A stretch of DNA of 64,000 nt, taken from assembly GCF_024502345.1 (NCBI RefSeq), contig NZ_JALDNN010000001.1; one strand, given 5' to 3'. The translations under genes were made by a program, and so were the position numbers. Shown piece after piece: positions 26,311 to 30,931 of this stretch. Each line of letters starts with the position of its first letter. The first letter of the stretch is position 1. The DNA is from Escherichia coli. Its GTDB lineage: Bacteria > Pseudomonadota > Gammaproteobacteria > Enterobacterales > Enterobacteriaceae. Below the pieces are notes generated by a model that searched no databases, had not been told where the DNA came from, and worked only from the letters and a program-made list of their open reading frames with translations.

Positions 26311-27786
26311 ATGAATACCCAGTATAATTCCAGTTATATATTTTCGATTACCTTAGTCGCTACATTAGGTGGTTTATTATTTGGCTACGACACCGCCGTT
26401 ATTTCCGGTACTGTTGAGTCACTCAATACCGTCTTTGTTGCTCCACAAAACTTAAGTGAATCCGCTGCCAACTCCCTGTTAGGGTTTTGCGTGGCCAGCG
26501 CTCTGATTGGTTGCATCATCGGCGGTGCCCTCGGTGGTTATTGCAGTAACCGCTTCGGTCGTCGTGATTCACTTAAGATTGCTGCTGTCCTGTTTTTTAT
26601 TTCTGGTGTAGGTTCTGCCTGGCCAGAACTTGGTTTTACCTCTATAAACCCGGACAACACAGTGCCTGTTTATCTGGCAGGTTATGTCCCGGAATTTGTT
26701 ATTTATCGTATTATTGGCGGTATTGGCGTTGGTTTAGCCTCAATGCTTTCACCAATGTATATTGCGGAACTTGCTCCTGCTCATATTCGCGGGAAACTGG
26801 TCTCTTTTAACCAGTTTGCGATTATTTTCGGGCAACTTTTAGTTTACTGCGTAAACTATTTTATTGCGCGTTCCGGTGATGCCAGCTGGCTGAATACTGA
26901 CGGCTGGCGTTATATGTTTGCCTCGGAATGTATCCCTGCACTGCTGTTCTTAATGCTGCTGTATACCGTGCCAGAAAGTCCTCGCTGGCTGATGTCACGC
27001 GGCAAGCAAGAACAGGCGGAAGGTATCCTGTGCAAAATTATGGGCAACACGCTTGCAACTCAGGCAGTACAGGAAATTAAACACTCCCTGGATCATGGCC
27101 GCAAAACCGGTGGTCGTCTGCTGATGTTTGGCGTGGGCGTGATTGTCATCGGCGTTATGCTCTCCATCTTCCAGCAATTTGTCGGCATCAATGTGGTGCT
27201 GTACTACGCGCCGGAAGTGTTCAAAACGCTGGGGGCCAGCACGGATATCGCGCTGTTGCAGACCATTATTGTCGGAGTTATCAACCTCACCTTCACCGTT
27301 CTGGCAATTATGACGGTGGATAAATTTGGTCGTAAGCCACTGCAAATTATCGGCGCGCTCGGAATGGCAATCGGTATGTTTAGCCTCGGTACCGCGTTTT
27401 ACACTCAGGCACCGGGTATTGTGGCGCTACTGTCGATGCTGTTCTATGTTGCCGCCTTTGCCATGTCCTGGGGTCCGGTATGCTGGGTTCTGCTGTCGGA
27501 AATCTTCCCGAATGCCATTCGTGGTAAAGCGCTGGCAATCGCGGTGGCGGCCCAGTGGCTGGCGAACTACTTCGTCTCCTGGACCTTCCCGATGATGGAC
27601 AAAAACTCCTGGCTTGTGGCCCATTTCCACAACGGTTTCTCCTACTGGATTTACGGTTGTATGGGCGTTCTGGCAGCACTGTTTATGTGGAAATTTGTCC
27701 CGGAAACCAAAGGTAAAACCCTTGAGGAGCTGGAAGCCCTCTGGGAACCGGAAACGAAGAAAACACAACAAACTGCTACGCTGTAA
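26311..27786 (+). CDS. xylE: D-xylose:proton symporter (MFS)
   Basis: 491 aa MNTQYNSSYIFSITLVATLGGLLFGYDTAVISGTVESL...; MFS sugar porter signatures. Confidence 0.95.
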   Translation: MNTQYNSSYIFSITLVATLGGLLFGYDTAVISGTVESLNTVFVAPQNLSESAANSLLGFCVASALIGCIIGGALGGYCSNRFGRRDSLKIAAVLFFISGVGSAWPELGFTSINPDNTVPVYLAGYVPEFVIYRIIGGIGVGLASMLSPMYIAELAPAHIRGKLVSFNQFAIIFGQLLVYCVNYFIARSGDASWLNTDGWRYMFASECIPALLFLMLLYTVPESPRWLMSRGKQEQAEGILCKIMGNTLATQAVQEIKHSLDHGRKTGGRLLMFGVGVIVIGVMLSIFQQFVGINVVLYYAPEVFKTLGASTDIALLQTIIVGVINLTFTVLAIMTVDKFGRKPLQIIGALGMAIGMFSLGTAFYTQAPGIVALLSMLFYVAAFAMSWGPVCWVLLSEIFPNAIRGKALAIAVAAQWLANYFVSWTFPMMDKNSWLVAHFHNGFSYWIYGCMGVLAALFMWKFVPETKGKTLEELEALWEPETKKTQQTATL

Positions 27787-27796
27787 TCTTCCTGTC

Positions 27797-27832
27797 CAGC
27801 ACGCCGCGCCAGTTCGGCGTGCTGTCTTTTTA
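27797..27832. terminator. Hairpin terminator between convergent xylE and psiE
   Basis: CAGCACGCCG...CGGCGTGCTG stem followed by TCTTTTT; the T-tract overlaps the psiE stop codon. Confidence 0.65.
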
Positions 27833-28240
27833 CTCCCGCTTCAGCCGTTTCGAATTACACAGCCACAGGGTGATCACCAGTAACAGGATCGCAGCCGAGT
27901 AGATCAACACATCCAGTGGCGATTTATGATCGACGATGATCAAGCGCACAATGGCGGTGATCCCAATATAGACAAAGTAACGTAGCGGGAAGTGAAAACC
28001 GGACTGAAAGTATTTCACAATCAGCGCGATAAATTCGAAATAGAGAAAGTAAACCACCAGTCCTTCTACCAGCTCATATTTGCTGGTTTGTTCTGGCGCG
28101 AACAGCACATCTGCCAGATGCACCGTTTCTTTGCCGAGGAAGACAACCAAAATCAGGCCGAGGCACAGCAGGCCAAGATTGAGTACGGTCTGCAAAATGG
28201 TGGAGATAAACTCCACGCGCGGACGAGAGAGTGACGTCAT
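27830..28240 (-). CDS. psiE: Phosphate-starvation-inducible protein PsiE
   Basis: Internal start gives [47 protein letters not shown]... 136 aa membrane protein. Confidence 0.9.
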
Positions 28241-28354
28241 AGCAGTACCTCCTTCACAGTGGCGAGCTTCCTGTATAACGCAAAAATGTGACGGAGATCT
28301 ATATTTTTTGTGTATGTTTTGTTCAACCTGGATTTGGAGCGCGCCTCCACCAAA

Positions 28355-28410
28355 GCCGGATATACCTACCCGTAGGCCGGATAAGCCGCGCCTGGCGGCG
28401 CATCCGGCAA
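28355..28410. repeat. REP element
   Basis: GTAGGCCGGATAAGCCGCGCCTGGCGGCGCATCCGGCA. Confidence 0.7.
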
Positions 28411-28509
28411 GACAAACCGCACCCAAGCCGGTAATTCAAAAATCACCCATTCAGGTGATTCCCAGCCACCAGCAATGCGCGAAAAATCGACAATGTTCCT
28501 CTGGAACAA

Positions 28510-28788
28510 ATGAAACGTAACCTGATAAAGGTGGTAAAAATGAAGCCTTATTTTGCTGCTTTGATGTTATCAGTCTCTGTTCTTCCTGCTTATGCTGGTC
28601 CGCTCGGTACTGCTGATAAAGCCGACCTACCGCAAAGCAATGTCTCCAGCCCAATGATGGCCCAGTCGCTCAGGCAACCAGACCTGCAACCGATATCGAC
28701 GGACAGTAAGACAGAATGTTTTCGCCTTTACACACCAGATCGCAAACCGGGGGTGAACTGCGTTCCTGATGGCTCAACAGGCCATTAA
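28510..28788 (+). CDS. yjbT: Small secreted protein of unknown function (YjbT-like); start may be at 28540
   Basis: 92 aa ORF; from Met11 reads MKPYFAALMLSVSVLPAYA then GPLG... (signal-peptide-like); position between psiE and yjbH. Confidence 0.6.
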   Translation: MKRNLIKVVKMKPYFAALMLSVSVLPAYAGPLGTADKADLPQSNVSSPMMAQSLRQPDLQPISTDSKTECFRLYTPDRKPGVNCVPDGSTGH

Positions 28789-28834
28789 GAATGAGGGTGC
28801 CAGTGATTGCGAAAACTGGCACCCTTCCCATGAC

Positions 28835-30931
28835 TTAGCGGAAATTGACGCTACGGTCGCTGGTCATGTCATACAACTGGAACTTACGCCCAAGTTGCTG
28901 ACCACCGTCACGCGTCAGCGGCGTCCAGCCAATCGCCGCACGGCTGCGTGTCGGGCCAGACGAGAAGAGATCCAACGGTACCGAGACATACACGCCTTTG
29001 GTGAAGTCCCCTTCGCCGTACTCCTCTTTCGAAACGTTGGTGATCGTGGCATAGCCACCCACCACCACGCCGCTGTCAAAGCGTTTAGCGATCTCCAGCG
29101 TGCCGCCTTTATCCCCTGCCAGATACTGCCCGACGCTGGCTTTCACCAACACGTCCTGGGCGAAAGATGGCGTCCAGTAGGCGGTCAGATGTCCGGTTTT
29201 CACGCTGTAGTCGGTGAATTTCATCATATCTTTTGCACTACGCCAGTCGCGCTGTTTAACGTAGTTGGCATCCAGACCAAACGCCCAGTTACTGTCCAGC
29301 GGACGATACAACACTTCGGCCCCCGCACCGCCAAACATGGTTTCGAGATAACCTCCATAGACCTGACCGTAGAAGCCGTTGCCCAGATGCTGGAAGTAGT
29401 TGGCTTGCAGGTTATTCACATAGACATCGTTCTGCACATACTCGCGCACATGGGTACGAACGCGCGGTAAGTGCGAGTCCTGCGGCGGATTGGTGTAGTT
29501 AAACTTGTCGTAGTTGTTGGCAAGATTTGCAAACAGGCTGCCGGTGGTCAGCAGATGGTCCGTCAGCCACAAATCTGCCGTTCCCATCACGCCCAGCTGA
29601 TACATGTAAAAGTTTTCCGGGCCACCGACCGACTGGTTCAGCACCGGATCGATATGGAAATCAAAGCGTGATTTGTCGATATACCAGCCCTGCTCGGTGG
29701 ACTGCGGAACCACTGGCTCGACGCGTTTTTGCGCCAGCTTCGTTTCGTGGCCCAACGGCTCTCCGGCGAGATGATTTTTCAGGCTGGCGACATCGGTTTC
29801 CGTCGTCACCTGCGGCATGTTAAGACGATTTTCCGTAATGCGGATCGTTTTGATCCCATCCGGCAGATCGTTCATCACGATCCGATTCGCACGGATGATC
29901 CCTTCGCGCGAATCACGATATTTCACCTGCTCGCCGGTAACATACAGCGTATCGCCTTTCGCCTGGATCTGTGGATCGGCAAGTCCAGCATTGTATTTCA
30001 ACAGCGTTAACTGATTCGCCACCACCGAATGCTGCAAAATGGCATCCTGCGGCTGCGGTTGATATTGCGGGCGGGCGTTATCGTTGTAAGACGGGCGCAG
30101 ATCGTTAAAGTTGGTGCGCAACGTAACGCCAAACATAAAGGTGTTGCCACGTTCATAGCTAAGGTTAACGTCGGCCCAATCGGTAACGCGATAAATCGCA
30201 CCGACGTTAAACTTACTTTTTTGCTCCAGCTTCCCGGCAAAATCCTGCTGATAATTATTGCCTTCATACTCCAGTTTCAGGCGCAGCGGTTGCCAGGGCG
30301 TCTGGTATTCCACGCCGCCAAACAGTGAGGCAGGACCGTGGAAAATCTGGCTACCGTCGATAGATCCCGCCTGTTTGTAGCTGTTATCGCGATAGCAATA
30401 TTTATCACTGGCTGAACAGAGCGGATTTTTCACATTACCGCTGGTGCCCAAATATCCCCAGCCCAGGCCGAGCGTAAAATCGAACGGCCCCCAGGCTTTG
30501 CTGGCAACAAGATATTCCGCATCAAACAGCCCCGTACCGCCGATATCCCGCGCACCAACCGCCACTTGCGGCAGCCAGTAACTCTCTTCCCACAAACGCA
30601 GTTTGAGATCGAAGGCTTTATCTTTATACGTTTGATCGCCAGAGAACGCTTCGACGCTGCTGTACTGCCGGGTGCGCACGTCGGTGTAGCGCAGCGTTGT
30701 TTCCAGCCACGGGAAGAGTTGCACTGAAGCTGAGTAATAACGGTACTGATCGTTATCGCGATAGTTCAGACTCAACTCCCCTTCCCGTGCCATACGCGCG
30801 GTGGGCGTTTGTAATAATCCTACGCCACCGAAATCCGACTGCGACGGACCAATGGGCGCAGGATATGTTTCGCCGTAGCAAGCTGTGCTAATGCCCAGCG
30901 CCAGTAAGCTAAGCAGATGTCTTTTTTTCAT
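28835..30931 (-). CDS. yjbH: Outer-membrane-associated protein YjbH (yjbEFGH exopolysaccharide locus)
   Basis: 698 aa [59 protein letters not shown]... Confidence 0.9.

Follow-up and report, generated by a model that had tools for sequence, protein, structure and literature searches.

The open reading frame at positions 28510-28788 (plus strand) of the window, the 64,000-nucleotide stretch of Escherichia coli DNA analysed here, is the orthologue of the K-12 gene yjbT: it is nearly identical to the K-12 gene, it is flanked by psiE and yjbH, and it is convergent with the latter. Taken as a whole, the data are best explained by a genuine monocistronic gene (yjbT, b4620) that encodes, from a start at position 28540, an exported mini-protein with two cysteines, and we consider this account likely to be correct. 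The ORF is a named, annotated gene, so it is already known as a gene, and as a discovery the finding requires no further attention once tied to that name. What is new for yjbT is the probable correction of its start, the placement of the evolutionary constraint in a module of 25 residues with two cysteines, and the description of a portable regulatory cassette; the first-pass annotation of this DNA lacked the gene name and the Pfam family, the passenger status of the neighbouring REP element and the finding that constraint resides almost wholly in the last 25 residues. These results provide a starting point for work on yjbT, as they single out the 25 residues and two cysteines to target by mutation and the mature mass to seek, and they imply that a linkage to yjbEFGH should not be assumed.

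As annotated, yjbT consists of 92 codons and a stop, with the ATG at 28510 and the stop codon at 28786-28788. The first-pass annotation had reported this ORF between psiE and yjbH from the letters alone, and conservation confirms that it is real. The 92-residue translation matches the Pfam family PF17089 (YjbT) over residues 1-92 of 92, with E = 1.3e-64 and a score of 214.6 bits against a gathering cut-off of 27 bits; the family is described in Pfam as “Uncharacterised protein family”, and all 10 of the 10 aligned homologues match it and no other family. The annotation of K-12 MG1655 places yjbT (b4620, “PF17089 family protein YjbT”) at the equivalent position, and the product name given to the ORF by PGAP in E. 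coli E24377A is “periplasmic protein”. A single residue, Ser66 for Arg, distinguishes the protein of the window from that of K-12. This codon (codon 66 of the 92-residue form, 28705-28707), which lies just ahead of the invariant C-terminal module described below, reads AGT (Ser) in the window and AGG (Arg) in 8 of 8 other Escherichia sequences. Searches of NCBIfam, PADLOC and PHROGs with YjbT gave no match, and a profile search of the PDB returned nothing at E <= 10. Full-text literature searches for yjbT, b4620 and PF17089 found no functional study and no experiment on the export, cleavage, disulfide or function of YjbT; the gene appears there as a neighbour label in a FlhDC SELEX table and as a taxon-correlated feature in one phenotype-prediction paper, and it is absent from the supplements of Term-seq and N-terminomics papers and from the part of the Cappable-seq material that was covered.

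A 591-bp region containing yjbT is found in 5413 of 5426 complete E. coli genomes (~99.8%), with identities of 90-100%. The gene is dispensable, since it has been lost in at least one strain, E. coli EC42405, where the gap between psiE and yjbH is reduced to 120 bp. At this locus (NZ_CP043414.1, 4725198-4727825), the yjbH and yjbG alleles carry protein accessions unlike those of other strains, and replacement by recombination is possible. Phage sequences contain 0 matches to yjbT, and none is located on a true plasmid: six “plasmid” matches belong to records of 0.65-4.9 Mb, which are chromosomes or mega-replicons given their size.

The length of the ORF is no evidence in itself because the same 5 kb contain many chance ORFs of similar size; the case for a protein-coding gene is made by the substitution pattern. 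Substitutions were counted by the Nei-Gojobori method between E. coli yjbT and the copies from Kluyvera georgiana and from a Kluyvera-like metagenomic contig. In the last 25 codons, 14-18 synonymous changes, near saturation, are accompanied by 0-1 non-synonymous ones (dN 0-0.018; dN/dS not computable). The 38 codons that follow the signal peptide contain 16-23 synonymous and 43-45 non-synonymous changes (dN 0.80-0.87; dN/dS ~0.6 where computable), and the signal peptide codons have ~7 and 11-12, respectively (dN 0.33-0.35; dN/dS ~0.46). For the whole gene in its 82-codon form, dN/dS against the Kluyvera-type genes is 0.14-0.20. This pattern implies that the ORF encodes a protein in the annotated frame and excludes both an RNA element and an overlapping frame as the source of the constraint; yjbT is under purifying selection, most of which falls on the last 25 codons. 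All 8 other Escherichia sequences examined have an intact frame and homologues exist in Kluyvera, Pseudocitrobacter, Buttiauxella and Shimwellia, so that the outcome named in the first-pass annotation as a refutation, a frame not conserved in close relatives, is not what is observed.

A chance ORF or a decaying, non-functional remnant could be suspected from the shortness of the ORF, its restriction to few genera, its loss in a few strains, a frameshift in one Shigella flexneri entry and the fold prediction, which yielded no result. Yet this reading, to which we assign next to no probability, is already refuted by the last 25 codons, where synonymous sites are close to saturated (18 changes) and 0 changes are non-synonymous; furthermore, the start, the Shine-Dalgarno sequence, the signal peptide and both cysteines are kept across five genera, 99.8% of E. 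coli genomes carry the gene, and it is transcribed in every condition tested. In the S. flexneri genome, the frameshifted YjbT is annotated as a fragment of 60 aa, which may be a pseudogene, in line with gene decay in Shigella. Databases also hold “frameshifted” YjbT clusters of 97-162 aa. Two homologues with apparently compensated frameshifts were considered as a sign that only the ends of the protein matter, and this idea was rejected because they are sequencing artefacts: for at least one cluster, indel errors are indicated by the source assembly (GCA_002230035.1), in which xylE and yjbH are fragmented as well.

The annotated start of yjbT is probably ten codons too early, as judged from the comparison of sequences. 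All YjbT homologues outside Escherichia, which are 75-85 aa long, begin at the equivalent of E. coli Met11, and a conserved Shine-Dalgarno sequence, AAGGTGG (28528-28534, plus strand), is located 5 nt ahead of the corresponding ATG at 28540. The predicted duplex with the 3' end of 16S rRNA amounts to -8.5 kcal/mol for this ATG, which places it in the top 1.7% of the 931 ATGs of the window, and to -3.3 kcal/mol, the 30th percentile, for the ATG at 28510. The DNA block (T)CTGAT-AAGGTGGTAAAAATG around the Shine-Dalgarno sequence and the start is kept across genera; outside Escherichia, the upstream ATG is absent or out of frame: it is replaced, by ATA in Kluyvera, and an indel breaks the frame. 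From the starts of the non-Escherichia homologues and the strong, conserved Shine-Dalgarno sequence, we infer that yjbT starts at 28540 and occupies 28540-28788 (plus strand; 82 codons and a stop), so that the first 10 codons of the annotated gene are probably 5' UTR. The first-pass annotation had also opted for Met11, a better choice than that of the databases because every homologue outside Escherichia starts there. The alternative that the annotated 92-residue form is the true product, with a start at 28510 and a 29-residue signal peptide bearing an unusually basic n-region (MKRNLIKVVKMK..), has some points in its favour: 9 of 9 Escherichia sequences retain the in-frame ATG at 28510, this ATG lies downstream of most of the mapped RNA 5' ends and inside the transcript, and it is the start used by K-12, PGAP and the Pfam model. 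However, Kluyvera, Pseudocitrobacter, Buttiauxella and Shimwellia either lack the extension or have it in another frame, its Shine-Dalgarno pairing is weak (-3.3 kcal/mol), and the ATG begins 2 nt after a conserved hairpin, all of which makes the longer product unlikely. Pairing of GCCACC with the Shine-Dalgarno sequence, seen in the fold of the E. coli sequence, was considered as an anti-Shine-Dalgarno element and discarded, since it is not conserved in other genera.

Starting from 28540, the protein opens with a predicted Sec signal peptide of 19 residues, MKPYFAALMLSVSVLPAYA (28540-28596, plus strand), that comprises an M-K n-region with one Lys, followed by YFAALMLSVSVL and P-A-Y-A/G, with a predicted signal peptidase I site after A-Y-A (..LPAYA/GP). 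The hydrophobic core peaks at 2.4 in the Kyte-Doolittle mean over 11 residues, Ala occupies positions -3 and -1, and the n/h/c layout is kept in 10 of 10 aligned homologues. A plausible signal peptide from Met11 had been proposed in the first-pass annotation, and its prediction of a small periplasmic or secreted protein is likewise supported by these Sec-type sequence features and by the PGAP name “periplasmic protein”. YjbT thus appears to be exported by the Sec pathway and cut by signal peptidase I. There is no lipobox, the residue after the predicted cleavage site being Gly and the first Cys being residue 60 of 82, and neither candidate N-terminus contains the RR of a twin-arginine motif.

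The predicted mature protein has 63 residues, ~6.7 kDa and a pI of 5.5, and is hydrophilic (GRAVY -0.73). Its description as Pro/Ser-rich in the first-pass annotation is only moderately accurate, with 8 Pro and 7 Ser in 63 residues (24%). Two parts can be distinguished in it. Residues 20-57 (28597-28710, plus strand) form a variable segment of 38 residues, rich in Pro, Ser, Asp and Gln, that is weakly constrained and poorly alignable across genera. It is followed by an invariant C-terminal module of 25 residues, TECFRLYTPDRKPGVNCVPDGSTGH (28711-28785, plus strand), which includes Cys60 (28717-28719) and Cys74 (28759-28761), presumed to be joined in a disulfide loop. These are the two cysteines pointed out in the first-pass annotation, and they prove to be invariant throughout the family, with a constant spacing of 13 residues; in a wider alignment, the core of the family reads T-x-C-[FY]-x8-[RH]-x-P-G-[VIL]-N-C-[VI]-P-D.

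These features suggest the following scheme. Translation from 28540 would give an 82-residue precursor, which the Sec pathway would export and signal peptidase I would cut after Ala19 (..LPAYA/GPLG..), leaving a periplasmic polypeptide of 63 residues and ~6.7 kDa. In the periplasm, Cys60 and Cys74 would be oxidised, presumably by DsbA, to close a loop of 15 residues. The conserved loop with its PGVNC[VI]PD motif may be the functional part, serving as a recognition or binding epitope for a partner in the envelope, and the 38 N-terminal residues of the mature protein would be a loosely constrained and probably disordered linker or pro-region. The notion of a binding loop is a conjecture because AlphaFold2 gave no confident fold: the full 82 residues (7 sequences) were modelled with a pLDDT of 51 and the C-terminal 37 residues (9 sequences) with a pLDDT of 61, in both cases with no secondary structure. 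A likeness to ecotin (SSP..MMA and C.PDG) was dismissed, as the BLASTP match had E = 0.44 over 5 residues.

Ivy, an inhibitor of lysozyme, is a periplasmic, larger folded protein with an invariant two-cysteine loop. By analogy, YjbT resembles it in being, as predicted, Sec-exported and in having a short invariant two-cysteine loop as the likely business end; it differs from Ivy in its smaller size and in the loop motif, and no relation in sequence or structure was found. The precursors of secreted peptides, such as the heat-stable enterotoxin STa, combine a signal, a poorly conserved “pro” middle and a conserved Cys-containing C-terminus within 70-80 residues. The similarity of YjbT to the STa precursor would be one of layout only, that is, a Sec signal, a variable middle and a short conserved C-terminus with cysteines; in contrast to STa, YjbT has two cysteines instead of six and shows no sequence match (PF17089 is the only family at E <= 1), and yjbT is a chromosomal gene that is core in E. 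coli, unlike the STa genes, which are borne on plasmids or transposons. This general layout of secreted precursors, with a signal, an unconstrained middle and an invariant Cys-containing C-terminus, would also fit a pre-pro-peptide from which the variable segment is removed, so that the disulfide-looped C-terminus TECFRLYTPDRKPGVNCVPDGSTGH of 25 residues is the active and possibly released form (a signal, an inhibitor or a toxin-like peptide). However, no conserved processing site precedes the module, the residues at this point being S/R-K, R-R, H-V, H-R, R-V and L-N, no maturation or export gene is located near the yjbT loci, and YjbT could not be related by sequence to any peptide family; we therefore regard such processing as doubtful. 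The related idea that the loop peptide acts as a periplasmic or released ligand or inhibitor, confined to a few genera and carried on a mobile promoter-to-terminator cassette, is similarly tentative and, in our estimate, improbable.

Turning from the protein to its expression, yjbT is bounded by psiE, which is divergent (minus strand, ATG at 28240), and by yjbH (28835-30931, minus strand), which is convergent, and therefore requires a promoter and a terminator of its own. An ORF at 27830-28426 on the psiE strand is a longer mechanical extension of psiE. Directional RNA-seq (PMC3734233) detected b4620 as expressed in 7 of 7 conditions and as a single-gene unit; together with the orientation of its neighbours, this bears out the suggestion of the first-pass annotation that the ORF is transcribed on its own, and yjbT is a genuine monocistronic gene. 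The 5' ends assembled for b4620 in that study, at U00096.2 4238085-4238100, correspond to 28489-28504 of the window after conversion with an offset of 1976 bp between genome versions.

Two palindromic blocks are conserved upstream of the gene. Block 1 (28442-28459, plus strand) contains the perfect palindrome ATCACC-N6-GGTGAT within AAATCACCC..GGTGATT, is the sole perfect match in the window and is shared by 8 of 9 homologous loci, non-syntenic ones included. It folds with -7.8 kcal/mol (z = -4.2), but the stem is broken in Buttiauxella, which indicates that the sequence and not the structure is conserved, and the block could be an operator or an activator site in the promoter region. An assignment to CRP or FNR was rejected because the half-sites are inverted relative to TGTGA-N6-TCACA. 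Block 2 (28494-28508, plus strand) is the palindrome TGTTCC-TCT-GGAACA, which coincides roughly with the start of the transcript, given the RNA-seq 5' ends at 28489-28504. Its GTTC/GAAC core persists in 8 of 9 loci, again including non-syntenic ones, its loop has 3-5 nt and its fold amounts to -5.8 kcal/mol. Since the length of the loop varies, a hairpin in the RNA fits better than an operator with fixed spacing, and block 2 is probably a 5'-terminal hairpin of the mRNA; alternatively, it may be an operator.

The promoter and terminator scan called neither a sigma-70 promoter nor a canonical terminator at yjbT. By eye, a candidate -10 hexamer, AAAAAT (28482-28487, plus strand), can be placed 17 nt from TTCCCA (28459-28464), giving a putative TTCCCA-17-AAAAAT promoter that matches at 8 of 12 positions, below the threshold of the scanner. 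Seven non-identical homologues have the upstream blocks, and in six of these a hexamer with A2 and T6 precedes block 2 by 6-9 nt (the A2/T6 hexamers at yjbT loci are AAAAAT, GATAAT, AACAAT, GAAAAT, TACGAT and AACACT); Buttiauxella izardii has TATGCT 11 nt before this block. Other sigma factors were considered by eye using consensus sequences: a sigma-E reading of GGAAC..TCTGA was rejected as its spacing is 4-5 nt too short, and sigma-54 and sigma-28 readings of the GGAAC and CTGATAA blocks were rejected as the -12 and -35 elements are missing.

At the other end of the gene, a GC-rich hairpin of 12 bp (28793-28826, on both strands) lies between the convergent stop codons of yjbT and yjbH, with folds of -22.4 kcal/mol (z = -5.7) on the plus strand and -21.3 kcal/mol (z = -3.7) on the minus strand. 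A hairpin is present 3' of the stop codon at every homologous yjbT locus, with differing sequences, and the one in the window is probably a bidirectional terminator shared by yjbT and yjbH; the terminator scan did not call it because it has no U-tract.

The distribution of the YjbT family is narrow, with 14 clusters of homologues recovered by a word-indexed protein search and 12 by a full HMMER pass over 1.84 billion representatives. According to source names and a genome scan, the family occurs in Escherichia (E. coli, E. albertii, E. whittamii and two further species) and Shigella and, outside these, in K. georgiana, Pseudocitrobacter, B. izardii, Buttiauxella sp. and Shimwellia pseudoproteus. 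Escherichia, K. georgiana, Pseudocitrobacter and one metagenomic lineage share the order psiE-yjbT-yjbH(GFE). In the K. georgiana locus, a gene for a hexapeptide-repeat (LbH) acyltransferase is inserted between yjbT and yjbH (positions 6377-6832 of that locus). Elsewhere, yjbT adjoins a CsbD-family gene in B. izardii, a DUF2767 gene in Buttiauxella sp. and a phospho-beta-glucosidase cluster on the Kluyvera-like metagenomic contig, and in Shimwellia it is flanked by a transporter gene and a NUDIX gene. No neighbouring gene is common to all the yjbT contexts compared. The upstream blocks, the Shine-Dalgarno sequence, the ORF and the hairpin stay together in these different contexts (Buttiauxella and the Kluyvera-like contig), which identifies yjbT as a self-contained gene unit that extends from the upstream palindromes through the terminator hairpin and travels into non-syntenic loci.

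The conserved order of psiE, yjbT and yjbH in Escherichia, K. georgiana, Pseudocitrobacter and the metagenomic lineage, and the terminator hairpin that yjbT and yjbH have in common, could suggest that YjbT serves the yjbEFGH exopolysaccharide system as an accessory factor in the periplasm, for example by binding YjbH in the outer membrane. This role is rather improbable: yjbT is convergent with yjbH, so the two are not co-transcribed, the contexts in B. izardii, Buttiauxella sp., Shimwellia and the Kluyvera-like contig are unrelated, EC42405 keeps yjbFGH without yjbT, and few lineages have YjbT at all (12 clusters among the 1.84 billion representatives). Neither a common transcription unit nor obligate co-occurrence, either of which would place yjbT in a yjbEFGH or gfc-type operon, was found, and as no neighbour is shared by all contexts, a functional tie to yjbEFGH has no support beyond inherited synteny. 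The reading that we retain is that of an independent gene for an exported two-cysteine protein.

Several observations concern the surroundings of this gene. Beyond psiE, further upstream of yjbT, the window contains xylE (26311-27786), which is also present in K-12 and E24377A and is absent in three other E. coli strains, in Kluyvera and in Pseudocitrobacter; in the three xylE-less strains, malG is followed directly by psiE. This distribution suggests that the malG-psiE interval carries xylE as a variable insertion. A small RNA, MalH (b4807), is annotated in K-12 immediately upstream of xylE, at the malG 3' end (around 26000 in the window). In the intergenic region between psiE and yjbT, a psiE-proximal block, CTGTATAACGCAAAAATGTGACGGAGATCTA (28262-28300), is kept in Pseudocitrobacter and in one metagenomic relative and is presumably the regulatory region of psiE, a gene that we take to be under the control of PhoB and CRP.

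The same intergenic region contains a REP element at 28372-28408, identified by its core, its imperfect palindrome (GCCGGATAAGCCGC / GCGGCGCATCCGGC) and its many copies. The exact REP core CTTATCCGGCCTAC is found at 28372-28385 and is one of 15 such matches in the window, where 0.3 are expected, the inverted repeat is located at 28376-28408, and the region gives a sub-threshold Rfam match to the REP-derived naRNA4. Its presence upstream of the ORF had been correctly recognized in the first-pass annotation. The element is located ~100 nt upstream of the yjbT ORF, between the yjbT unit and the psiE promoter, and it does not belong to the yjbT gene, as it is absent at the homologous loci outside Escherichia; it is an Escherichia-specific intergenic passenger. 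On the minus strand, PGAP annotates a “hypothetical protein” of 47 aa (WP_000487770.1; 28366-28509) in many E. coli genomes. This ORF has a TTG start, abuts the annotated ATG of yjbT and spans the REP element. A stop codon breaks its frame in Escherichia sp. MOD1-EC7003 and in E. albertii, and E. whittamii and the REP-less E. coli strain KK05-19 have a wholly different sequence there; since the frame is interrupted and the sequence is not kept, WP_000487770.1 is probably a spurious call.
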